Source: Nitrosopumilus sp.
Lineage (GTDB): Archaea; Thermoproteota; Nitrososphaeria; Nitrososphaerales; Nitrosopumilaceae
DNA length: 64,000 nucleotides
NCBI GenBank assembly: GCA_965207445.1
Contig: CBDBLX010000001.1
Span: 57,041-121,040, forward strand
Reading direction: 5' to 3'
Shown here: positions 30,384 through 55,876 of the stretch, piece by piece
Numbering within the stretch: the stretch's first letter is position 1
How the letters are laid out: the number at the start of each line of letters is the position of its first letter
Program-made: the position numbers and the translations under genes
The notes under the pieces: model-generated
The model's input: the letters and a program-made list of their open reading frames with translations, nothing else
Databases searched by the model: none
Told to the model about the DNA's origin: nothing

Positions 30384-31250
30384 TTACAGAAATTTTTGCC
30401 CAGGCGTATGAGGATAATTTATGGCAACAATCTCCATACTGTCATTTTGTGTTGTATATTGCAGTGATCGTCGCAACGCCACATAATATGTCTCAAATTT
30501 CATATCTGACAGTCCCAAGTCATCAGGGCTGTTTTGTTCTGATATCATGATACGATTATCTCTGCGTGTAGCATCTACAAACTGCAAGAAACTCTCAGTT
30601 GTCGGAACCTCATTGTAATGTGAGTTGGGATTGTTCATGTATGGCGGGTCCAAATACAAAAACGAATTTTTAAGATGTTCAAATTCTTCGAATCTCTTGT
30701 TTGTTATTGTTATGTTTTTTATGCTCTTGCTAATATTGTGCATATGTCCATTTAGCAGATCAGGGCAGCGCGTATTTTTACGCATGGGTACATTAAATCT
30801 GTTTTTTCGATTAAAACGAATCTTACCACTAAACGCATTTTTTGCCAAGTATAGAAATTGTCCTGCGCCCTTTACACCATCAGTTAACGAGTCCTCTGCA
30901 CGTACCGCTAGATAATACTCATGAGATGATCGACTTTTGTGTTTGTTGTATTCATGTATAAGTTGATCAATGTCATCACGCACACATGTCATAAAATTAG
31001 TCAGTACAGGGTTGTTGTCATTATATGTGATATCACTCAAAGGCCCAAAACGAAAAGAACAGTATATGGTAAACGCCCCAGAGCCACCAAACAGGTCATA
31101 GATTTGTTTGCCATATTCATTTGGCATCAAGTCATCAAATATGTGAGTGAAACCAGATTTGTTTCCCACATATGGTAACAGGTGACACTTTTGATTCTTA
31201 TTGTTTCTTACTTCATAGTGTGGTGCCGATAACAATAATAGTACACACAA
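30384..31250 (-). CDS. Dam-like (D12 class) N6-adenine DNA methyltransferase, orphan
   Basis: LPYVGNK, DLFGGSG, FNVP, LYLDPPY; start uncertain. Confidence 0.88.
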   Translation of the reverse strand: MCVLLLLSAPHYEVRNNKNQKCHLLPYVGNKSGFTHIFDDLMPNEYGKQIYDLFGGSGAFTIYCSFRFGPLSDITYNDNNPVLTNFMTCVRDDIDQLIHEYNKHKSRSSHEYYLAVRAEDSLTDGVKGAGQFLYLAKNAFSGKIRFNRKNRFNVPMRKNTRCPDLLNGHMHNISKSIKNITITNKRFEEFEHLKNSFLYLDPPYMNNPNSHYNEVPTTESFLQFVDATRRDNRIMISEQNSPDDLGLSDMKFETYYVALRRSLQYTTQNDSMEIVAINYPHTPGQKFL

Positions 31251-33922: not shown

Positions 33923-34122
33923 TTAGAATCCAAGTATACGGTGGTTAACTAGCCCCGATATAATCTGCAAGATACGGTCAAGAGAGTCATCAAATTTAAT
34001 GTATATATTTCGCAGCACTGAAAAATGTTTTAGTTTTCCTATTGCATGCTCTATTTTGATTCGAATTTTACTGATGGACTTGTTGTGTTTTTTTCTCATT
34101 TTCTACCAACTCTTTTTTTGAT
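33923..34122 (-). pseudogene. IS5-family (DDE_Tnp_4-like) transposase C-terminal remnant
   Basis: Hand translation: KKELVENEKK (frameshift) HNKSISKIRIKIEHAIGKLKHFSVL...GLVNHR. Confidence 0.7.
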
Positions 34123-34577
34123 TCCTCCACGTGCAAATGATTTCAATGTGACTAGTGCATATTCTGTATTTTCTTGTAATTCTGAGCTTTTATACGAACG
34201 GCCACGAGTTACAGTAATCATGTTGTTCAAATACACAGGGTTATCTCTACTAGTAACATCTAAAGATGTTTTATCTTTGAACAGTAAAATTTTCTGTGCG
34301 TTTACAATTTTTTTAAATTGATCATCAATTGTTTTTAGATCTATTATATCTACACTAAAGAAGATCAGAATCGTCAAATTCAATACTCAGGTTTGTCATG
34401 GTGTTGTGGTCTATGGGTCGTTCACCCTCCACGGCAAGATCCAGATCTGAGCCATCATGTGTTGTCCATTTAGATCTGCTTCCAAATACCCATTCTGACA
34501 TCTGGCTCAAGATGTCTTTGAAGAATATCGCACACCATACTCATGTGATTCGGGGATATGTCGATTGAACTAGTCAA
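34123..34577 (-). pseudogene. MNT-HsdS fusion pseudogene (frameshifted MNT plus truncated TRD1)
   Basis: Relic WVFGSRSKWTTHDGSDLDLAV with two frameshifts; 34123-34289 matches 50324-50490 with one mismatch. Confidence 0.85.
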
Positions 34578-35001
34578 CAGACGTATTCATCTCCTTGAGG
34601 TGGGCCAAGGTATATTGTGCATCCTGCAGAAAATCTACCACACCTTCAAAGATCTCTTGTGCCTTGTCCTCATTGTATGTGTGACTGGTGGTTCCACGAC
34701 TTTCTCTGTATTTGCGCCAAACGGTCACATCAGAACATACAAGATTCTTGCCATATGCTTCTCGTATAATTCTGTTAAAAGTCATATCGTTAACTGTTTT
34801 GGGACTGGGTGTAGTTTCTATCAAATATCGCTTGATCATTTTAAATGTAAGTTCATATGTAAATTCAAAGGCCAGTATGGTGGCCGAGCGCAGGTGTCTC
34901 TGCAACACAACATCATTCCTAGTTGCCTCTCGCTTGTATATGTCCAAGGACTCTTCTAGTTGGGCCACTGCTCTCTCCAATGGTCCAAGATCAAGACTCA
35001 T
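34570..35001 (-). CDS. HEPN-domain protein (HI0074-type), putative RNase toxin
   Basis: AFEFTYEL, IIREAY, RGTTSHTY (Rx4H). Confidence 0.9.
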   Translation of the reverse strand: MSLDLGPLERAVAQLEESLDIYKREATRNDVVLQRHLRSATILAFEFTYELTFKMIKRYLIETTPSPKTVNDMTFNRIIREAYGKNLVCSDVTVWRKYRESRGTTSHTYNEDKAQEIFEGVVDFLQDAQYTLAHLKEMNTSVD

Positions 35002-35174
35002 ACGCCATCCTCCATGCCTGCAAACCCCAAGTCCATTATATTTTTTGTGATGAATTTGTCCAGTTTCCGCGCTTTAGACTGTTGTTTGCCTAATTCGGCT
35101 GCCAGCCGCCTCATCTTTTGCTCAAACGACTCACCATCACCTTCCTCCTGAAGTGCAACTCCTACGTAACGTCC
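34998..35174 (-). pseudogene. orphan HsdM C-terminal fragment
   Basis: GRYVGVALQEEGDGESFEQKMRRLAAELGKQQSKARKLDKFITKNIMDLGF; its stop overlaps the HEPN ATG. Confidence 0.8.
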
Positions 35175-43963: not shown

Positions 43964-44118
43964 TGCAGAGGATAATCGCGTGAATCAATCTCTATGACTG
44001 ATATGATCATTCAAAAATAACTCTATCAAATACATCGCATACACGATATTCGATATGCAGACAAAGATGTGACCAAATACACATATGTGATTTTATTATT
44101 GTGTCCAAAGAGCTTGGT

Positions 44119-44610
44119 TCACACCATTTTTTCATATATCTGTATGTTATGTCGGATGTATAACAAGTAACTCCAGCTACATTTTGAGCAACATAAAGTA
44201 TTTCTCTTAAAATCTGATCGTGTCTTGAATCCCTTCAAGTACTCTGCAGGTAATTTATGCGCATCAGTAATTACAATACCACCAATCTTTAGAAATTTTA
44301 TTGCGTCCAAAAATATTTTCTTTGAATTACGATGAATACTATTGAGTACGTTGACACATATTACAACGTCTGCCTGTCCAATATAGTCATCTATATCCGC
44401 AGCCTCTTTTGTTATAAACTCATCAAGACGTGATTCAACAGTTTCCTTCGCATGGGGATCAATTCCAATGGCATATACCCTGACATTTTTTGTAGCGAGA
44501 CATTCTTTGCATCCTGTGAGCGCAATTCCAGTAGAACACCCCACATCAATTACGACAACTTGGTTATTTGTCCGAGCAAAATTCTGATGAATGTAACTTG
44601 GAATTCCCAT
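44119..44610 (-). CDS. small class I SAM-dependent methyltransferase, 5' end cut off by an IS
   Basis: VIDVGCSTG, GIDP, ADVVICVNVL, LKIGG; original start probably TTG 46044. Confidence 0.8.
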   Translation of the reverse strand: MGIPSYIHQNFARTNNQVVVIDVGCSTGIALTGCKECLATKNVRVYAIGIDPHAKETVESRLDEFITKEAADIDDYIGQADVVICVNVLNSIHRNSKKIFLDAIKFLKIGGIVITDAHKLPAEYLKGFKTRSDFKRNTLCCSKCSWSYLLYIRHNIQIYEKMV

Positions 44611-44634
44611 TCCATCATATCGTGACTTCCATGT

Positions 44635-46025
44635 CAGTAGTTCGCAATGTGCTCAATTTTTAATGATCTTATTTCTAATTATGCAGTGCGACAGATTTAC
44701 AATGGTAAGGAACCACCGTGCTCCAATTCCCACCGAAGCAGTCTTCTGATTGAACCGGCAATTGAATCTACAAACGCATCCATTGTGAATAATTTTTCAT
44801 CTACAAGTCCGCCGTAATTTTCGTACCTTGCCATTACCCATAAACCATATAATAACATTCCAAAAAATATCAACAGTAATCGAAGCTGCAAGGCGTTGCT
44901 AGTTGTCTTTGGAGTCGTGTTTTTTATCACTCTGTATCCCGTCTCTATTATCCAGCGCTTGCGATAAGTCTCTGGGATGGTTTTGATGAGTTTGCTTTTG
45001 CTAGTGATTTTCATATTTGTGGCAAATGCCACATACTGATCGACTGTTTTATCAGTTTCTTTGGCATTATTTTTTTTGACGACAAGTAATGTGAACTTTA
45101 CTGCTTTTTTGTTTTTATCACGCATCTCAATGACTGATGCAGTTTTTCTCTTTTTGTTGTGAACTTCTAAAATATATTTTTGTATGCGCTTATTTTTAAT
45201 TGCCGGCATTATGAAAGACAGGCGCAAGCGCAAAAGTTCATCTATGCATGCAACATTGTAAAAACCCCGATCAAAGAGGCCAAGTTCCGGACGTGCATCC
45301 TCTCGAATTAATTTTTCAATGATTTTACGCATGACTGTGACCATTTTATCCTTACTGGTCACACGATGTGCAAACAAAGGTATGTTACCTGCTTGATTTA
45401 CCATTTGTGCTGTCATAAATGAATGAAATCTCGCAGTACCATTTTTGGGCTTTGTTTTTAGCATCTCAGGTTTGAGTGCCTTGCCATAATATTCCCATCC
45501 GGTCATATCAATTGCAATAGTACCGCCTTTTTTGAGCATGTTGTGTTTTTTGGCATTCTTGAGCATTGCTTTGACATTCTCGTCACCCCATTGTTTTACT
45601 TTCTCTAGATCTGCACTCTTTAGGCATTTGAGCACAGTATTTTCAGATGGTATGTTTATGCGCTCGCCTTTTTTAAAATAGTTAGCCTCATTGCGTTTTC
45701 TTTTGTGTGTTGCTGCATTTACGCACATGTTGTTGAGTGACATGGTGACAAGTGTACCAAGATAATCATCCACCTCATACGTGTGGTTATATCTGGTTGA
45801 TATGTCTAGTCCGAGATCGTCGAATCGTTTTCGTAAAACTTTATAATTTACTTGTCCTAATTCATATTGATGTTCTAGTATCTCATTTTTCATACTTAGT
45901 CAGAGATACTAGAATGTTCCCATATATTATACTTTCTATTTGATCTGATCAAATATGATCATCAACGTTCAACGACATTGCGGATTATTCAAATAAAATC
46001 ATATAAAACACATTGCGAACTACTG
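44635..46025 (-). mobile_element. ISH3/IS4-family insertion sequence, apparently complete (1391 bp)
   Basis: Perfect 17-bp TIR CAGTAGTTCGCAATGTG; 4-bp TSD ATGT. Confidence 0.92.
44697..45893 (-). CDS. ISH3/IS4-family transposase
   Basis: IAIDMT, FDRGFY, YRKRWIIETGYRVIK. Confidence 0.92.
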   Translation of the reverse strand: MKNEILEHQYELGQVNYKVLRKRFDDLGLDISTRYNHTYEVDDYLGTLVTMSLNNMCVNAATHKRKRNEANYFKKGERINIPSENTVLKCLKSADLEKVKQWGDENVKAMLKNAKKHNMLKKGGTIAIDMTGWEYYGKALKPEMLKTKPKNGTARFHSFMTAQMVNQAGNIPLFAHRVTSKDKMVTVMRKIIEKLIREDARPELGLFDRGFYNVACIDELLRLRLSFIMPAIKNKRIQKYILEVHNKKRKTASVIEMRDKNKKAVKFTLLVVKKNNAKETDKTVDQYVAFATNMKITSKSKLIKTIPETYRKRWIIETGYRVIKNTTPKTTSNALQLRLLLIFFGMLLYGLWVMARYENYGGLVDEKLFTMDAFVDSIAGSIRRLLRWELEHGGSLPL

Positions 46026-46046
46026 ATGTGTTCTTGAGTCTCAATT

Positions 46047-49000
46047 TCATAAATTTCCAGTCCAATTTTTTGCTATGACTTCAGCTTGGCTCAAAACAGT
46101 GTCAGTTGCCTTTTTGGTCTTGTCAGGTGGATATCCGTGCCTTCGCAGTACTTTTTTGACCTTCAGCCGGATGGCCGCCTGTACACTTGCCTTTTGAGTC
46201 CAGTCTATCGTGACGCTCCTTCTTATCATACTTGTCAGTTCTTCTGCAATTGCCTTGAGCACCTCATCTCCCAAGACCTTTACCGCACTGTCATTGACTT
46301 CTAGCGCATCATAAAACGCAAGCTCATCCTCGTCCAGGTTCAATGTTTCGCCTCTATCCTTCTCCTCTCTAATCTGCCTTGCAATTTTGACAAGCTCATC
46401 TATGACCTCGCTTGTGCTGATCCTCTTGTCGTTGTACTTTTGTATGGTACCCTCCAGCATATCGCGGAAAGATTTTCCCTTGATGATATTTCTTTTTGAG
46501 TATGTCCTGATCTTTTCTTCCAATATCCTTCTAAGGGCTTCGCGCGCCAAATTCTTCTCAGGGGATTTTTTTATGTTTGAAAGAAATGTATCCGACAGTA
46601 TGGACACTTCAACATTCGTGTTCCCCGCATTGCCAATTACATCGATTATTTCATCTGATATGATAGCCTTTGAGATGATCTGTTTTATTCCGGCATCAAA
46701 TCTGTCACGGTTTACGCCTCCGTGCCCCGTAGTCTTTGTGATTGCAATCTTTATGGCCTCAAAGAAACCCACCTCATCTTTGATTTGCATGGCCTCCTCC
46801 CTTGGTAGAGCTATGGAAAACGCCCCCCGTAGCAGAGGGAACTCTTTTTGAAATCTCTCTTTTTTGCCAGGCTCCTTTAGTATGTGATCCACAGTACGTG
46901 ACATGAACGGCACGCGCCTCTCGGGCTTGAGGTTAAAGAATTCCATATAGTCAAACCCGTGAAACATGCTCTTTATAACATCATATTTTTCAAGCATGAT
47001 AGATACCGCATCATCCTGCACGTTGGTTGGCTTACCACGGCCGCCGTTTGCAGTATAGTTTGACATGGCATCCATCATCTCTCTGCTCATGTCCATGTAA
47101 TCCACAATCAGACCTCCCTCCTTGCCCGGGTAGACCCTGTTTACTCTTGCCACAGCTTGCATCAAGGTGTGGCCGTCCATCCACTTGTCCAGATACATCG
47201 TATGAAGAGACGGCGCGTCAAATCCGGTGAGAAACATGTCCCGTACTATGATGATTTTGTGCACTCCATTGGGATCCTTGAATCGGTCACCGACTGCTTT
47301 TCTTTTCTGCTTGTTTCTTATGTGCTCTTGCCACTCCTTTGGGTCAGACGCAGAGCCGGTAAACACCACCTTGATTATCCCTTTGTCATCGTCTTTGTGG
47401 TACCAATCGGGGCGCCGTTTCACGATCTCGTCGTGCAGTTCGACGCATATCCTTCTGGACATGCATACAACCATTGCCTTGCCTTCAAGGACAGAATCCC
47501 TTTCCTCATAATGTTTAATGATGTCATCTGCAATCTTCTTGATGCGCGCTGGAGCCCCTATCAGCTTTTCCATACGGGACCATGTCTTCATTGCCTTTTC
47601 TTTTTCATCTGGTTCACCCCCTTCTGTCACAGTTGCAAAGTCGTCATCAATGTGAAGACGCTCAGTAGATTTTATGTCAACTGGCACAAACTTGTTCTGA
47701 TAGTAGATCTTGACGGTAGAACCATCCTCTACTGCCTGCTGCACGTCATAGATGTCTACATAATCTCCAAAGACGGCAGGAGTTGAATGATCCTTTTTTT
47801 CAATTGGCGTGCCGGTAAACCCTACAAAAGAGGCATTGGGTAAGGCATCTTTTAGATACTTGGCGTAGCCGTATGTGATAAACGACTTGTCGTTTTTGTT
47901 TATTATCTTGGCCGCGAATCCGTAATGGCTTCGGTGGGCCTCATCTGCAATGACCACTATGTTGTCTCTCTTTGACAGGACCGGATGCTGGTCTCGATTA
48001 TCGGGAAGAAATTTTTGTATAGTTGTAAACACAATACCACCTGATGCAACACGTAACATATCTGACAGGTCCCTTCGAGCTTCTGCTTGCACGGGCTTTT
48101 GTCGAAGTATGTCATGGCACCTGCCAAACGTACCAAACAGTTGTGAATCAAGGTCGTTTCTATCCGTAAGTACAACAATGGTGGGGTTGTCCAGACTGCG
48201 CACTAGTTTGCCTGAGTAAAACACCATCGTCAGAGACTTTCCAGATCCCTGCGTATGCCATATCACGCCTGCCTTTTTTGTGCCGCCGCGTGCCTTGATT
48301 GTAGACTGTATGGCCTTGTTGGTAGCCCAGTACTGGTGGTACGATGCAAGCTTTTTGGTTGTTTTTTCATCTTTTTCAAATACGATAAAATTGCGTATGA
48401 TATCCAAGAGCCGATGTTTCTCAAACATGCCGCGCAACAAAATTTCAGCCTTGGAAAGTCCGTCATCTGTAGTGCCACCATCGATGGTCTTCCACTCCAT
48501 GAATCTCTCTTTGCCAGATGATATTGTTCCTGCCCTGGCCTGCAGGCCGTCACTTATTATGAGAATTTCCAAGTATCTGAACAGGTCGGGAATCTTTTCC
48601 ATGTATGTTTGAAGTTGATTATACGCAGACCAGATATCTGCATTTTCACTTGCCAAATTCTTTAGCTCCATGATTACTAACGGTATGCCGTTCACAAAAA
48701 ACAATACATCAGGTATACGTGTATCATTTCCTTCTATAGTAAATTGATTGATTACAAGAAAGTCGTTATTATTGATTTTTTTATCATCAAACTCACAAAG
48801 CCACACCTTTTCATATCGCTCGCCTGATTCAGTTTTGACAAGAACATCCACACCATCAACTAACATTTTGTGAAATGATTCATTATCAACAATTGGTGCA
48901 TGAGATGAGTTTTGCAGGACCTGCTTTATTGCATCGTCTATTGATGATTCTGGAATGGTGGGATTGATTCGTTGTAATGCCATCCGTAGTCTGTTCGTCA

Positions 49001-49139
49001 ACACTACTGATTTGCGATCGTCACGTAATGCTGATCTGCCTTCAGGATGATATTCCTCATTGTTTCCATGTATTATTTCGTATTCAAGTGATTTTAATAC
49101 AAATAGAACATATTTTTCTACATCTAATTCTGAAATCAT
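46047..49139 (-). CDS. hsdR: type I restriction enzyme R subunit
   Basis: [20 protein letters not shown] nuclease motif, [32 protein letters not shown]. Confidence 0.97.
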
Positions 49140-50782
49140 TTGGTTATTTTCCCTCCTCTGTTAACTTTAATTTTTCCTGACATTAATTTTGGTAAAATTG
49201 TATCTCTTAAATTAATTAGTAAATTAGATTGAATATTGTTTTGAATCCATCTTTCAAGTGAATGTTCAAAAACATCATTTATTGCATAAAGAAAATCATT
49301 ACTAGGTATAACACATTTTACTTCACTTAAATGATGACGTTGGATATGTCCCATTGTCGTAGCTTTATCTTTTGCAATACTTTGGAATTGTTTTAAGTGT
49401 ATATTTAACCACAATAAATAAAACCATTTTGGATAATTGTGTGAGGTCACTTTAAACAGATGTTGATTTAATGCTGCACGTCCACCACACCAAACTTTGA
49501 CAAGTAAACTTCCTGACCATGAAAAAACAACATCACCATTATTAATAATGCATTCAGACGCAATACTTTTTTTGGACCATTCTTTACCATCAGTGTATCC
49601 ATTTCTTAATTGTGCTATTTTTAAAACAGGTAATCTATCTTCATTTTTTTCGGGTCTGTGATTTTGTAATGCGAGTCCATTTCTGAAATCCGCTATTTCA
49701 TCAAGAGGTTTAATAGACCACCCTTCTGGAATCATGCCTAGTTCTGAATCTACCAATGTATCTGGAAATAAATCATAGGCAGTTGATGGCAATCCTGGAA
49801 GTGATTGCCCTCGTTTCCAGCGACCATCCATCTTGGCACGGACAGGTTCAAAATTTACAAACCATGACTTGAACAGTGTACGGGTCATTTCTTCAAGCAT
49901 TTTGTTCATTTGTCGATTTATCTCTATTTTGTCATCCAAAGTTTTCAGTATGTGTGAGATAGTTTGTTGTTCCTTTAAAGGCGGCAAAGAAAATTGAAAC
50001 GTAGATATGGCATTACGAGATAAGTGCAGTACCGTAGTTCCGGTTACAAATGATTTGATGTGGTTTACATATTCGTTAGATAAAAGCAAATAGTAAAGAT
50101 AATTAGAATCTAGTTGAGACTTATCAATGACGCGTATTATTGCTGCATCAAGTGAAGCAACTAACGTACTATAATTAGTGTCCATTGGTACAATGGCAGG
50201 TCTTCCAATCACATCGGCATTTTGAGTGATGTCTGTCTGAGCAATAACTATATCATTTGGACGTATAATCTGTTCTGTACTGAATGGTCCAATATATGGT
50301 TTGAGTCCATCACGGCGATAACCTCCTCCACGTGCAAATGATTTCAATGTGACTAGTGCACATTCTGTATTTTCTTGTAATTCTGAGCTTTTATACGAAC
50401 GGCCACGAGTTACAGTAATCATGTTGTTCAAATACACAGGGTTATCTCTACTAGTAACATCTAAAGATGTTTTATCTTTGAACAGTAAAACTTTCTGAGC
50501 ATTTATAATTTTTTTAAAATTATCACTAACATTTTTCAAATCTACAACATCCACAGTGTATGGAAGGTTAGAATCATCAAACGCAACATCAAGTGCAGTC
50601 ATGGTTTTATGATCTATGGGTTTGATATTTTCTATGGCAAGATCCAAATCTGATGCATCAGTTGTCTCCCACTTGGCTCGACTTCCAAATACCCAAATCT
50701 TTGTATTTGATGGTAGATGCTTGTGTAAAATGTCCGATACCATATTTAAATGATCAGGATTTATGTCTATGGGATGTGTCAA
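49136..50782 (-). CDS. hsdS: type I R-M specificity subunit with N-terminal minimal nucleotidyltransferase (MNT) domain
   Basis: aa 1-100: FGSRA..SDLDLA..VDVVD; then TRD1, PPLKEQQ..LDDKI conserved region, IPEGW, TRD2, [12 protein letters not shown]. Confidence 0.92.
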
Positions 50783-50795
50783 ACAATTTCAACTC

Positions 50796-51368
50796 TTAGA
50801 TTTTAATTGATCTCTTTTTAGCACTGTCAAATTTGATGCCTTTGTTACTTTTAATTTTTGAAGTGTGTTTTTTAATTTTAGATTTCGACTTGGATATTTT
50901 ATTTTCTAGTTTACTATTCTTTGTATTGCTTTGAGTTGTAATGGGTGGAGCGTGTTGAATCTCTTGTAAACGGGCCAGCACATAACGTGCCTCATTTAGG
51001 AATTTTGATACTGATTCAAAAACTGCTTGTGCCTTGACTTCGTCATACGTGTGACTGGTTATCCCACGATTTTTACGGTATTCCGTCCAAACCACAACAT
51101 CAGAATTTGTCAGATTTTTTGCATATGCTTCACGAATAATATGCTTAAAACTCATAGAGTCAACTTCGTGAGGATTAAACAATGATGTGTATAGGTGTCG
51201 TTTTAACATTTTAAGTGTTAATTCATATGTAAATTCAAAAGCTTGTATGACTGCACCGCGCATGTGTATTTTGTATTTTGGTTTTTCTTGTATTAGTTCA
51301 TAGTATGCATCTAGTGCACTTTCAAGTTGGTTAATTGCCTTTATCAACGATGTAACATCAAGACTCAT
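50796..51368 (-). CDS. HEPN-domain protein (HI0074-type), putative RNase toxin, with basic C-terminal tail
   Basis: IQAFEFTYEL, IIREAY, RGITSHTY. Confidence 0.9.
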   Translation of the reverse strand: MSLDVTSLIKAINQLESALDAYYELIQEKPKYKIHMRGAVIQAFEFTYELTLKMLKRHLYTSLFNPHEVDSMSFKHIIREAYAKNLTNSDVVVWTEYRKNRGITSHTYDEVKAQAVFESVSKFLNEARYVLARLQEIQHAPPITTQSNTKNSKLENKISKSKSKIKKHTSKIKSNKGIKFDSAKKRSIKI

Positions 51369-51531
51369 TGTTTACTCCGCTTTATATCAAATTCTAGATT
51401 TTTTATGTTTTATGTAATTGCAGCATCTAGATTTTTGGATTTTGTTTGGAGTTCGCCCCACTGCAATGTTAATTGTTGCATTTTTTCCTCAAAAGATTCT
51501 TTTTCATCTGATCGGGATTCGACACCTACGT
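51365..51531 (-). pseudogene. orphan HsdM C-terminal fragment
   Basis: VGVESRSDEKESFEEKMQQLTLQWGELQTKSKNLDAAIT*NIKNLEF; final stop overlaps the HEPN ATG; cut by the IS end at 51532. Confidence 0.75.
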
Positions 51532-51697
51532 CAGTAGTTCGCAATGTGTCAATTTTTAATGATCTTATTTCTAATTATGCAGTGCGACAGATTTACTATG
51601 TCAAGTAACTACCGTGCTCTAATTCCCACCGAAGCAGTCTTCTGATCAATCCGGCAATTGAATCCATAAATAATCCATTGCAAATAATTTTTCATCT
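51532..51697. mobile_element. truncated end of the ISH3-like element
   Basis: Diverged copy of about 44635-44800. Confidence 0.85.
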
Positions 51698-52000
51698 CAG
51701 TAGTTCAAAAAGTAAAGCAGTGTTTGAGTCCGGATTCAGGTACATTGTCACCACATGTCGCGTGTCAGGTCAGTGACACGATTGTGAGATAGAAAACACA
51801 TGTATCGTACAGATGAACAGGCGGGTTTGCAAGCCCGATTCGGCGCGCCACAACATGATGTGCGCAGGCGGAGCCCCGGTTTTTATCTTCCTGTGATTTG
51901 GCACGTCGTATTTTGTATTGTGCTTGCGGTATTTTTGAGGCAAGATATCACCTGATGTCTTCCAAAAACCTTCGTGACACCGTCACTTTTTGAACTACTG
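51698..52000. mobile_element. 303-bp MITE / deletion derivative of an ISH3-like IS
   Basis: TIR CAGTAGTTCAAAAAGT / ACTTTTTGAACTACTG. Confidence 0.8.
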
Positions 52001-52185: not shown

Positions 52186-53772
52186 ATGGCACAGACAAAA
52201 TCCAAATCCACATCGGGAGGGGCAGACACAAATCGTTCTACCGATACAGATCTACTCGGATTTGAAGAGAAGATGTGGAAGGCCGCAGACAAGCTCCGAA
52301 GCAACATGGACGCAGCAGAATACAAGCACGTTGTACTGGGCCTGATATTTCTAAAGTACATCTCTGATGCGTTTGTGTCTCTCCACGAGTCACTGAAGAA
52401 AGACCCCGATTCTGATCCAGAAGATCAAGACGAGTATATTGCTAAAAGAATCTTCTGGGTACCCAAAAAGGCACGATGGGACTATCTTTCGGACAATGCA
52501 AAAAAGCCAGAGATAGGAGAGTTGATCGACAATGCAATGCAGTCTATCGAAAAAGAGAACTCATCCTTGCGCGGAGTCCTGCAAAAGGACTATGCACGGC
52601 CCAGCCTCAATAAACAGAGGCTTGGAGAACTAATAGACCTGATAGGCACCATAGGTCTAGGAGACAAGGAAAGTAGAAGTAAAGACATTCTTGGACGCGT
52701 ATATGAGTACTTTTTAGGTCAGTTTGCAGACGCAGAAGGTAAAAAGGGTGGACAGTTCTACACACCACGAAGCATTGTCAAATTATTGGTAGCGGTTTTA
52801 CAGCCATACAAGGGCAGGATTTTTGATCCATGTTGCGGATCAGGTGGCATGTTTGTCCAGAGTGAGAAATTCATCAAGGCTCATGGTGGAAAAATTGGAA
52901 ACGTCTCAATCTACGGGCAGGAGAGCAATCCCACCACCTGGCGCTTGTGCAGAACAAATCTCGCCATACGCGGAATAGAATCCAACATGATTAAATGGAA
53001 TGGACAAGGTAGTTTTGTACAAGATGAACACAAAGATTTACGAGCAGATTTCATACTTGCAAATCCGCCATTCAATGACAGTGACTGGAATGGACATCTG
53101 TTGCAAGATGATGTCAGATGGGCGTATGGCGTGCCACCTGTAACCAATGCAAACTATGCATGGATTCAACACTTCATAAACCACTTGTCACCTGCAGGAA
53201 CGGCAGGATTTGTAATGTCAAATGGTTCAATGTCATCTAATACAGGTGGTGAAGGAGAAATTCGTCAAAATATCGTAGAACGAGATCTGGTAGATTGTAT
53301 GGTCGCACTGCCCTCACAATTATTCTACAACACAATGATTCCGGCCTGTCTGTGGTTTGTAACTAAAAACAAGAAAAAAAATACCCAGTTTAAAAATCGT
53401 CAAAAACAGGTACTGTTCATTGATGCTCGCAACATGGGTGTGATGATTGATAGGCGACATCGGGAGCTAACAGATACAGACATCACTAGAATTGCAGATA
53501 CCTACCATGCTTGGCGCAATAAAAAATTTAACTCTAAATACAAAGATGTTGCAGGATTTTGCAAATCTGCATCGGTATCAGACATAGAAAAACAAGATTG
53601 GGTGTTGACGCCGGGTCGATATGTTGGGATTAAAGAAGAAATTGAAAATGAAGAAGAATTCGAAACAGAAATGTTCAAACTTACAACAGAATTGTCTGTA
53701 CAATTTCAACAGAGTAAAAAACTTGAAAGTGAAATAAAAGGTAATTTAAAAAAAATTGGATTTGAAATCTAA
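52186..53772 (+). CDS. hsdM: type I R-M methyltransferase subunit
   Basis: [36 protein letters not shown]. Confidence 0.97.
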
Positions 53773-54373: not shown

Positions 54374-55876
54374 TTAGGCCAAAAGCAGAAAGAGTGACGC
54401 CGGAACCATCACATATTCTGAAGAAACGTCGAGTCGATCTTTGGATATTACTAGACCCTTGCCACGCGTCTTGTTCAGAACTCTATACATGCCGGCTAGG
54501 TCACGTCCCGGCCTGTTTCGATATTTTACTTCTATCGGCACCACCATCTTGCCACCGTCGTCATATACAAAGTCAACCTCATGACCATTCTCCATGTGGT
54601 AAAAGATTCTATAGTGGTGGTCAAAATTTTGTTTGTTGGGGCTGGCATTAAAGGCCAATCTTGTCAGATGGTTGGCGACAATACCCTCTATCAACACACT
54701 TTTGTTTTCGCTTGCATCAAGGTATTCTGATGATGCGTCAAAGTAGCCCCTAGATGCAGTCCATCCATTGAACATGTGAAAGAAAAACGGATCGACAAAG
54801 TAGATTTTTTTATTACGGTGAAACATAGGGCTCCTGCTGTCCATATTGTATCCATATATTGTAAGCAAAACGAAGAGGTTTGAGAGTGTCTGCACAGAGT
54901 CCTGTACCGTCTTGGGGGATCCGACATCTGCATTCTTGGCCATGTTGTTCCATGATGCATGGCTTCCTTGTGACTTTACAACCTCCTTACCAATGCGTTT
55001 TAACAGATTATTGTCCCTGCCAAGCCTTGACCACTCCCCCATGATGCTATCCATGTATGTACTGTACACGTTTTCGCGAATAGGCAAAGACGATGCTTGG
55101 GCATTTACGACAAAAGGAATTCCTCCACTGTACATGTATTTGGACAAAAGATCGTCTAACAAGTGTTGATGCATGTGAGTGAGATCCATTGCACGATCTA
55201 CTTCACCATTTGCCAGTTTGCCAAATGTTGTAAACCGATCCTTGGATCTGAGAAAATACGAATCCACAATCGTTCTTATCTCCGAATCCATCGCACTGGC
55301 ATACTCTGCAAACTTTAACGGAAGAAGAACTTTGTCGTGAGGTTCTGTTGTGCTTCCCCTTCGCCCGGGCAGCCGTTCAATTGATCTCTGCAGGTCTATT
55401 GCATCAGAACCCGTCGCCATGATGGTACTGTTTGCAATACTGTTTCTATCCTTCAATCGTTTTATACCCTTTTGCCAGTTTGGGATGGTCGATACCTCAT
55501 CTAGAAAGATGTAACGCCTCCCTTTATCCCACATACGACGTGTTAGTCTATTGTAAGACTCTACTACGTCGACCAGCTCACTCGGAGTCTTGCACAGATC
55601 AAATGAATAGTAGAGTATGTTCCAAGGAGATGTTCCTTTCTTCAAGAATTCGCGTATCTGTAGTTTTATCAGGGTGGTCTTTCCAATCTGGCGTGTTCCC
55701 CTTAATGTATACACTACAGGATTGTCGGGCTCAAAATCATAGGTTATCTTATGCATTATTCTCGGTACAATTTGCAACTTTGATCTCATCCACATTGTTA
55801 TCTCCGGATCATCGTCAACCCAGTCAGAACCTCTCCACCATGGATTGTCCCTTATGATGTCGCCATCTGCAACCAT
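54374..55876 (-). CDS. AAA_14 ATPase with DUF4143 and C-terminal PD-(D/E)xK-like domain
   Basis: NPWW, GTRQIGKTT, FLDEV, TGS, KKIYFVDP, EVDFV..PIEVKY. Confidence 0.88.
   Translation of the reverse strand: MVADGDIIRDNPWWRGSDWVDDDPEITMWMRSKLQIVPRIMHKITYDFEPDNPVVYTLRGTRQIGKTTLIKLQIREFLKKGTSPWNILYYSFDLCKTPSELVDVVESYNRLTRRMWDKGRRYIFLDEVSTIPNWQKGIKRLKDRNSIANSTIMATGSDAIDLQRSIERLPGRRGSTTEPHDKVLLPLKFAEYASAMDSEIRTIVDSYFLRSKDRFTTFGKLANGEVDRAMDLTHMHQHLLDDLLSKYMYSGGIPFVVNAQASSLPIRENVYSTYMDSIMGEWSRLGRDNNLLKRIGKEVVKSQGSHASWNNMAKNADVGSPKTVQDSVQTLSNLFVLLTIYGYNMDSRSPMFHRNKKIYFVDPFFFHMFNGWTASRGYFDASSEYLDASENKSVLIEGIVANHLTRLAFNASPNKQNFDHHYRIFYHMENGHEVDFVYDDGGKMVVPIEVKYRNRPGRDLAGMYRVLNKTRGKGLVISKDRLDVSSEYVMVPASLFLLLA

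Follow-up and report, generated by a model that had tools for sequence, protein, structure and literature searches.

A 64,000-nucleotide stretch of Nitrosopumilus sp. DNA (assembly GCA_965207445.1, contig CBDBLX010000001.1), referred to here as the window, contains a gene in which a minimal nucleotidyltransferase (MNT) antitoxin domain is fused in frame to a complete HsdS, the specificity subunit of type I restriction-modification (R-M) enzymes. A predicted HEPN toxin gene lies directly upstream and, judged by sequence, HEPN and MNT are a cognate pair of the HI0074/HI0073 type. The explanation preferred here, which is about as likely to be right as wrong, is that a HEPN-MNT pair was captured between hsdM and hsdS and that its antitoxin gene became fused to hsdS. 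The result would be a type VII-like toxin-antitoxin (TA) module within a type I R-M system, where its likely effect is stabilising. The fusion combines two known kinds of arrangement, type VII TA systems and HEPN genes embedded in R-M loci, and is not a new kind.

Architecture of the HEPN and MNT-HsdS genes

The genes and domains concerned, in window positions, are:

50796..51368, minus strand: predicted HEPN toxin gene of the HI0074 family, 190 amino acids (open reading frame (ORF) table, PF08780, TIGR01987)
49136..50782, minus strand: MNT-HsdS fusion gene, 548 amino acids, TTG start (ORF table, Pfam, PADLOC, AlphaFold2)
50483..50782, minus strand: MNT domain, residues 1-100, with G33 S34 ... 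D45 x D47 ... D78
50450..50476, minus strand: disordered linker between MNT and the first target recognition domain (TRD1), residues 103-111, pLDDT below 50, variable in length and sequence among 35 fusions
49136..50449, minus strand: HsdS body, residues 112-548, with TRD1, central helix 269-309, TRD2 and C-terminal helix 495-535
46047..49139, minus strand: hsdR, 1030 amino acids (Pfam, NCBIfam, PADLOC)
52186..53772, plus strand: intact hsdM, divergent, 528 amino acids (ORF table, Pfam, PADLOC)

A gap of 13 bp (50783-50795) separates the HEPN stop from the fusion gene, which shares a 4-bp overlap with hsdR. A first-pass annotation, made from the sequence alone, had described a HEPN gene with the Rx4H motif RGITSH lying 13 bp before a 548-residue ORF, an intact MNT in the first ~100 residues of that ORF, and a complete two-TRD HsdS overlapping hsdR in the remainder. 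All three elements reappear in the profile searches. The HEPN protein matches PF08780 NTase_sub_bind (1.3e-27; 96.7 bits against a cut-off of 31.8 in the Pfam scan) and scores 79.5 bits against the NCBIfam model TIGR01987 HI0074 (cut-off 55.8), which makes it a member of the curated HI0074 family. In the 548-residue product, PF18765 Polbeta covers residues 19-103 (1.7e-10; 41.3 bits, cut-off 26.9), PF01420 Methylase_S matches two stretches (1.6e-24) and the PADLOC Specificity_I models span residues 116-541. The protein thus has the two TRDs and conserved helices of an HsdS, and its gene has hsdR and hsdM as neighbors, although the colinear hsdM is a remnant and the intact copy is on the other strand.

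Both partners carry the motifs expected of an active pair. The RX4HXY motif of HEPN reads RGITSHTY (R101-x4-H106-x-Y108), and the GSX10DXD motif of MNT is G33 S34 x10 D45 L46 D47, with a third aspartate, D78, in VDVVD. The accessible text on one studied HEPN-MNT pair describes the same two motifs and AMPylation of the tyrosine (PMC11586414). In a search of the PDB, the nearest solved structures are HI0074 (1jog, 1.5e-20) for HEPN and HI0073 (1no5, 1.2e-15, residues 5-105) for MNT. An experimentally studied HEPN toxin/MNT pair ranks after them, with 8xdj at 2.4e-8 and 8xeh_E at 0.0075.

The AlphaFold2 model of the 548-residue protein (mean pLDDT 87.3, pTM 0.70) consists of two confident modules. 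The MNT domain is predicted at pLDDT 83-93, and the stretch below 50 that joins it to the HsdS body would serve as a tether. A complex prediction for MNT (residues 1-112) with HEPN (residues 1-140) scored 0.01 against a mark of 0.32 and carries no weight either way.

The HEPN protein of the window also has a Lys-rich, low-complexity C-terminal tail (residues ~140-190, window 50796-50950). Most HEPN relatives are shorter and end at 140-149 residues. The HEPN of a second contig of the assembly (C2) has such a tail as well, and lengths of 172-195 residues are recorded for 14 listed proteins (P0241-P0254), the window protein among them.

The fused reading frame

The fusion is no assembly artefact. 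Among the 120 best listed full-length homologues, 97 contain the nucleotidyltransferase Pfam domain, 96 of them together with Methylase_S, and an MNT profile built here detects the domain in 99 of the 120, always at the N-terminus. All 35 aligned fusions share the residues G33, S34, R35, S44, D45, L46, D47 and D78; the linker and TRD1 vary freely. One homologue (P0002) has its N-terminus, linker and TRD1 in common with the window protein. Within the window, a decayed paralogue (34099-34566) retains MNT-TRD1 junction DNA nearly identical to that of the intact gene. Contig C2 carries a 542-residue allele of the same architecture, and the same fused frame occurs in an annotated Zymomonas mobilis plasmid, pZMOB01, and in eight genome loci.

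The junction near 50480, which had been singled out for confirmation with reads, is bridged by Logan contigs. Contigs from four runs span 49778-50353, 50324-50490 and 50461-51252 and show 0 differences there, and the interval 49100-51500 has no listed indel. The four runs come from one sample, probably the source of the assembly, and their support is not independent. Two genes misjoined through a missing stop or an indel might be suspected from the TTG start codon and from the presence of two strain variants of the region in the assembly, but the recurrence of the frame in homologues, in C2, in pZMOB01 and in other genomes, with Logan contigs spanning the junction unchanged, leaves this reading practically no probability. 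An internal start at Met120 that would release a free HsdS finds no conserved Met in that column of the fusion alignment (A1).

Distribution and conservation

The MNT domain alone (110 residues) was compared with 1.84 billion cluster representatives, yielding 3260 matches at E<=1e-3, and the best 150 of these were examined with a local HsdS profile built from alignment A1. All 89 proteins of at least 400 residues match this profile, as do 20 of the 42 proteins of 151-399 residues. Some of the other proteins in this middle range begin a TRD-like segment and look truncated. The remaining 19 representatives have at most 150 residues. Judged by these profile matches, no other state of this MNT clade comes near the HsdS fusion in frequency. 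The earlier surmise that similar architectures might exist in databases was therefore sound, both for listed homologues (97 of 120) and for the best MNT representatives (89 of 150).

Surveys from the side of either partner show how constant the arrangement is. HsdS motifs led to 80 genome loci, 11 of which contain this MNT. The first-pass proposal to look for a HEPN gene beside MNT+Methylase_S fusions can be answered from these loci: all 11 have an HI0074-family HEPN ORF abutting MNT on its upstream side (10 detected by phmmer and L007 by Pfam). In every case hsdM precedes HEPN, so that the order is always hsdM > HEPN > MNT(-)HsdS. In nine loci hsdR follows; of the other two, one breaks off early and one lacks hsdR over the next 6 kb. 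Cargo genes can sit between MNT-hsdS and hsdR in these operons. MNT and HsdS are fused in 8 of the 11 and occupy separate frames or genes in three. The full operon is seen on pZMOB01 (hsdM > HI0074 > 'subunit S', which is the fusion, > hsdR), and a split form is seen in Acetobacter ascendens (HEPN > MNT of 100 residues > hsdS > hsdR).

A survey from the HEPN side covered 80 metagenome loci. MNT is directly downstream of HEPN in 74 and upstream in none. In the 55 loci with enough sequence to judge there are nine HsdS fusions, three PD-(D/E)xK nuclease fusions, one helix-turn-helix (HTH) fusion and 42 free pairs. Eight of the nine HsdS fusions have hsdM upstream and the ninth is too close to the contig end. 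Free-standing HEPN>MNT pairs also occur on TA-rich plasmids, for example Z. mobilis pZZ6.01, where the pair sits among other TA genes. The free pairs and the split Acetobacter form count as intermediates. The accessible text of PMC3710099 generalises that MNT is almost always encoded first in such pairs; the HEPN-first order is a trait of this subfamily and departs from that rule.

A FastTree phylogeny of 97 fused and 109 short MNT domains requires 10 changes between the fused and short states, against about 68 with shuffled labels, and supported branches make at least three of the changes unavoidable. The fused rows had been chosen by their similarity to HsdS, which makes these values only indicative. 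In HEPN proteins encoded beside fusions, the motif Arg is present in 13 of 13, the His in 12 of 13 and the Tyr in 13 of 13. Across the 39 HEPN sequences of alignment A2, R101 never varies and the conservation of H106 and of Y108 is at least 90%. The catalytic and acceptor residues of both partners are thus conserved in the aligned sequences, a pattern suggesting that the RNase and transferase activities of the pair are under selection.

Several variants of the architecture were observed. In L152 and L164 (an identical protein), L153 and L174, the same MNT lies downstream of an HI0074 HEPN and is joined to a different partner that targets DNA: a YhcG/DUF1016 PD-(D/E)xK nuclease with hsdM or hsdR nearby, a PDDEXK_2+DUF4351 protein, or an HTH domain. 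Some fusions, such as P0063 and P0087 (A1 columns 200-300), have a second, tandem MNT-like segment before the HsdS body. In P0040 and P0426, part of HEPN is read through into the MNT frame.

The hsdM-hsdS slot

The position occupied by the pair is used by other genes as well. In 75 loci with hsdM upstream on the same strand, the interval between hsdM and hsdS has no insert in 52, an HI0074/73 cassette in 11 and a larger gap in 12. The larger gaps (L002, L023, L026, L036, L042, L060, L068, L070 and L072 among the loci) hold varied cassettes that include a HepT-like gene, YhcG nucleases, an MqsA-like HTH gene with a SecB-like gene, Phd+PIN, YafQ, TIR, AAA_14 with Schlafen, and radical SAM genes. 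On a plasmid of Picosynechococcus PCC 7003 (L183) this slot is taken by an MNT>DUF86 pair whose genes are unfused. Related operons carry additional genes between hsdS and hsdR, namely Abi_C, SIR2+HerA, reverse transcriptase, RhuM and Schlafen. To judge from this gene content, the hsdM-hsdS slot is a general landing place for TA and defense cassettes.

Strain alleles, decay and origin of the window locus

The surroundings of the pair in the window record repeated loss and exchange. The features involved are:

51389..51592, minus strand: hsdM remnant upstream of HEPN, C-terminal ~68 codons (tblastn E 5e-5 to 9e-10)
51532..51700, no strand assigned: insertion sequence (IS) fragment, transposase C-terminus plus end, cutting hsdM (blastn to the IS at 44633-44802 and to C2 IS ends)
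34570..35001, minus strand: HEPN2, an intact 143-residue HI0074-family gene (PF08780 8.7e-27; motif RGTTSHTY), intact in C2 too
34099..34566, minus strand: MNT-TRD1 pseudogene of a decayed cassette, with a frameshift and a stop in MNT and TRD1 severed by an IS
35022..35174, minus strand: remnant of an hsdM C-terminus preceding HEPN2 (tblastn E 4e-6 to 3e-12)

The tblastn queries for the hsdM remnants were the hsdM proteins of five fusion operons (L007, L015, L017, L059 and L079). Remnants, cut by IS elements, are found upstream of both window cassettes, which implies that the ancestral order hsdM > HEPN > MNT-hsdS > hsdR held here too. The only intact hsdM nearby is the divergent gene at 52186..53772 (+), which is of the same family as the hsdM genes in fusion operons and matches the hsdM proteins of the 11 MNT-carrying loci at 1e-107 to 1e-219 (phmmer).

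Of the two contigs that make up the assembly, the window belongs to the one of 121 kb. The other, C2, is colinear with window positions 31000-53779 at 96-98% identity, except for a replaced block at 43975-51015. Within this block (L096, C2:104173-106449), the HEPN allele has 192 residues and is 64% identical to that of the window. The MNT-HsdS allele is 39% identical overall and 57% identical in MNT, and it has different TRDs. The hsdR of C2 has decayed to 76 codons plus debris, and its HEPN, MNT-HsdS and hsdM genes are intact. Logan contigs of both alleles co-occur in the same sample. P0002 joins the window MNT-TRD1 to the TRD2 of C2, and TRDs are therefore shuffled in this population. One breakpoint between C2 and the window falls inside HEPN, such that the C-terminal half of HEPN travels with its MNT, which suggests that the two co-evolve.

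The host is archaeal, and the window contains genes for a primase large subunit, a Snf7-like protein and NFACT. The fusion was found in none of 40 other related genomes searched, and the database clusters with this architecture are all bacterial. These distributions indicate that the locus was probably transferred from bacteria. The window copy is an archaeal acquisition among IS elements and is partly eroded. No relative of the MNT was found in two viral-contig scans or by tblastn of phage records, as a viral origin might have left, and blastn of the HEPN-MNT DNA gave no match among plasmids.

One IS (DDE_Tnp_1) flanks the locus as copies or fragments at 44633-45893, at 51532-51700 and just after 53772, and its transposase gene (44697..45893, minus strand) is directly downstream of hsdR. 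Contigs over the IS fragment at 51536-51700 add up to a depth of 700-2100, compared with 4-30 over the genes, which makes the element probably multi-copy in the sample. An AAA_14/DUF4143 ATPase gene (54374-55876, minus strand) adjoins hsdM and matches the PADLOC candidate family PDC-S01; the family is also present in the hsdM-hsdS slot of L070. A D12-class N6-adenine DNA methyltransferase gene (30384-31250, minus strand) and a small SAM-methyltransferase-like ORF (44119-44610, minus strand) are near the island. No tRNA genes that could mark island borders occur within window 25000-64000.

Proposed function and its alternatives

In the preferred explanation, capture of the pair followed by fusion, the MNT domain would use ATP to AMPylate Tyr108 of HEPN and so block the RNase, as in homologous pairs from other bacteria. 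Since the antitoxin has no form other than the N-terminus of HsdS, encoded downstream of the toxin, control of the toxin would hang on continued synthesis of HsdS from its full-length start. A break or stop in the 5' part of hsdS, occurring while HEPN is still made, would leave new HEPN unmodified and halt growth. The hsdS/hsdM core belongs to a system without intrinsic addiction, and the likely pay-off would be that this core is stabilised; growth arrest behind restriction is a possible second benefit. The C2 allele, which lost hsdR and kept HEPN, MNT-HsdS and hsdM, is consistent with a stabilising role. A general landing slot likewise favors a generic TA function, either stabilisation or back-up arrest, over one that depends on the tether.

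A number of observations weigh against this explanation. The MNT scores 42.3 against the NCBIfam model MntA_antitoxin NF047752, below its cut-off of 60, and falls outside the curated MntA family; the HEPN does not belong to the DUF86/HepT family. The first-pass picture of a TA module built into a type I R-M enzyme holds in that the pair is embedded beside hsdR, but the window has no complete, colinear type I operon: the hsdM that formerly preceded HEPN is truncated by an IS. In the co-occurring C2 allele hsdR is decayed. HEPN2 is intact beside a broken MNT in both strain alleles and looks like an orphan toxin gene; it may be tolerated, silent, or covered in trans by the intact MNT-HsdS. Unfused TA and defense cassettes share the slot, and the fusion may thus add nothing. 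AMPylation is covalent, and loss of the operon would leave old toxin neutralised, so that classical post-segregational killing is not obvious. Toxicity, AMPylation and partner binding of the window pair are themselves predictions.

A stronger version of the preferred explanation assigns a function to the physical linkage. An AMPylating antitoxin carried in the type I complexes of many phyla would hold the HEPN RNase latent, and failure of the complex, sabotage or a stop in its synthesis would lead to growth arrest at the level of RNA. This proposal is tentative and rather unlikely. Unrelated, unfused TA cassettes in the slot imply that a physical tether is not needed for TA modules to live there, and covalent AMPylation means that modified toxin would not be freed simply by loss of HsdS.

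The opposite possibility is that fusing the two proteins serves no purpose in itself. In that case a permissive slot would have received a selfish HEPN>MNT cassette, and the loss of one stop codon would have produced a read-through that the cell tolerates. The gene order suits such an accident, because MNT is the last gene of a cassette that keeps one orientation in the metagenome loci, and its end overlaps the start of the gene that follows, typically by 4 bp. The same MNT has also been joined to nucleases (YhcG/DUF1016 and PDDEXK_2) and to an HTH domain, most of the judged HEPN-side loci (42 of 55) are free-standing pairs, fissions are seen in Acetobacter and L080, and the tree demands several supported changes. 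However, at least 109 of the 150 best MNT representatives (out of 3260) are fused, and the fusion has lasted in many phyla even though TRD1 and the linker vary. A fusion that was no more than tolerated would be expected to revert or scatter more. The dominance of the fusion in this clade is not easily explained by neutral accident, and this alternative is regarded as unlikely.

It is less likely still that the module is a PrrC-like guard, the idea of the first-pass annotation, which saw R-M integrity as a possible sensor. In this reading HEPN docks through MNT on M2S or R2M2S and remains latent until a phage anti-restriction protein or disruption of the complex frees the RNase and causes abortive infection. 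Like prrC, which in the accessible parts of PMC3710099 is also placed within a type I operon, the module is inside such an operon, and the fusion puts exactly one antitoxin on each HsdS-containing complex. Cargo of the abortive-infection type (Abi_C, SIR2+HerA, RhuM, Schlafen) is found between hsdS and hsdR of related operons, and the available text of PMC11586414 reports that a studied HEPN-MNT pair is controlled by complex formation plus AMPylation. Set against these points, the module has no ATPase or other sensor domain, and there is no known route by which a DNA mimic at the DNA groove would act on an N-terminal tether. Other TA cassettes sit in the slot unfused, split and free versions of the pair work without HsdS, and the C2 allele retains the module without hsdR.

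The least probable of the functional readings, and a distinctly improbable one, is that HEPN and MNT are regulators and not killers. They would adjust how strongly or when HsdS and HsdR are expressed, for example to delay restriction in a new host or to limit hsdS rearrangement. There is a precedent in the phd-doc homologues TvrAT of a pneumococcal type I locus (PMC6265443, accessible text), both alleles retain TTG, a weak start codon, for the fusion gene, and TRDs are shuffled among P0001, P0002 and C2. Yet the RNase and transferase residues are conserved as they are in toxic pairs, the cassette includes no recombinase, and no RNA target is evident.

Novelty and implications

Comparative genomic studies have noted toxin genes inside R-M and CRISPR loci, and a coupling of immunity to suicide has been proposed. 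At the locus described here the antitoxin is also present and is covalently part of the specificity subunit. Were the tether functional, this antitoxin would be the first to form part of a core subunit of immunity and would give the coupling hypothesis a direct molecular basis. Even a modest reading of the fusion could explain the upkeep of type I systems that are not addictive, and the design may tie cell growth to keeping the defense system intact. It also bears on the practice of deleting or swapping hsdS genes to improve strain transformation. The linker and the DxD motif offer a clean experimental handle, and the design is carried by pZMOB01, a plasmid of the tractable non-pathogen Z. mobilis.

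Database annotation names the fusion only 'restriction endonuclease subunit S'. In keeping with the earlier statement that no characterised system with this fusion is known, no paper describing it was found in the literature searched; Figure 5 of PMC3710099, which was not viewable, uses the label RM_TRD and may depict a related neighborhood. The accessible parts of PMC3710099, PMC3632139, PMC2701414, PMC12839542 and PMC4621449, and one supplementary file of PMC3710099, do not describe an MNT-HsdS fusion.

Comparison with known systems

The closest counterparts of the window pair are HI0073 and HI0074 of Haemophilus influenzae (1no5, 1jog; TIGR01987). Both halves belong with these proteins by sequence, and the free-standing relatives are likewise HEPN-first. 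HI0073 and HI0074 are encoded by two small adjacent genes, whereas the MNT of the window is residues 1-100 of a 548-residue HsdS. The window pair differs further in its location inside a type I R-M operon and in the Lys-rich tail of ~50 residues on its HEPN.

Type VII HepT/MntA systems share with the window pair the RX4HXY motif with its acceptor Tyr and the GSX10DXD motif (PMC11586414, accessible text). Their HepT toxins are of the DUF86 family and MNT is encoded first, whereas the window has a PF08780 HEPN and the toxin comes first. The window antitoxin differs also in being fused to a 436-residue DNA-recognition subunit. The HEPN/MNT pair of Aphanizomenon is reportedly another studied type VII system. 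A studied HEPN/MNT pair of this type also comes from Shewanella (PMC4621449).

PrrC-EcoprrI resembles the window in having a HEPN RNase gene in a type I operon, as a proposed second line behind restriction (PMC3710099 and PMC3632139, accessible parts). The first-pass annotation had cited PrrC as a precedent, and the analogy of location stands. The likeness does not extend to mechanism: PrrC has its own ABC ATPase and no MNT, is silenced non-covalently by the enzyme and is encoded after hsdS. The HEPN protein of the window has PF08780 as its sole Pfam domain, has no PADLOC match and lacks the N-terminal ABC ATPase by which PrrC and RloC are recognised.

Pneumococcal tvrAT was considered as a HEPN/MNT pair and rejected, being phd-doc. 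According to the accessible text of PMC6265443, these TA homologues inside the tvr type I locus do not cause addiction and repress a recombinase gene. The tvrAT genes and the Picosynechococcus PCC 7003 MNT>DUF86 genes are, like the window pair, TA pairs located in an hsdM-hsdS/hsdS region. Unlike the window antitoxin, which is one polypeptide with HsdS, they are separate genes, and none is fused to a core R-M subunit.

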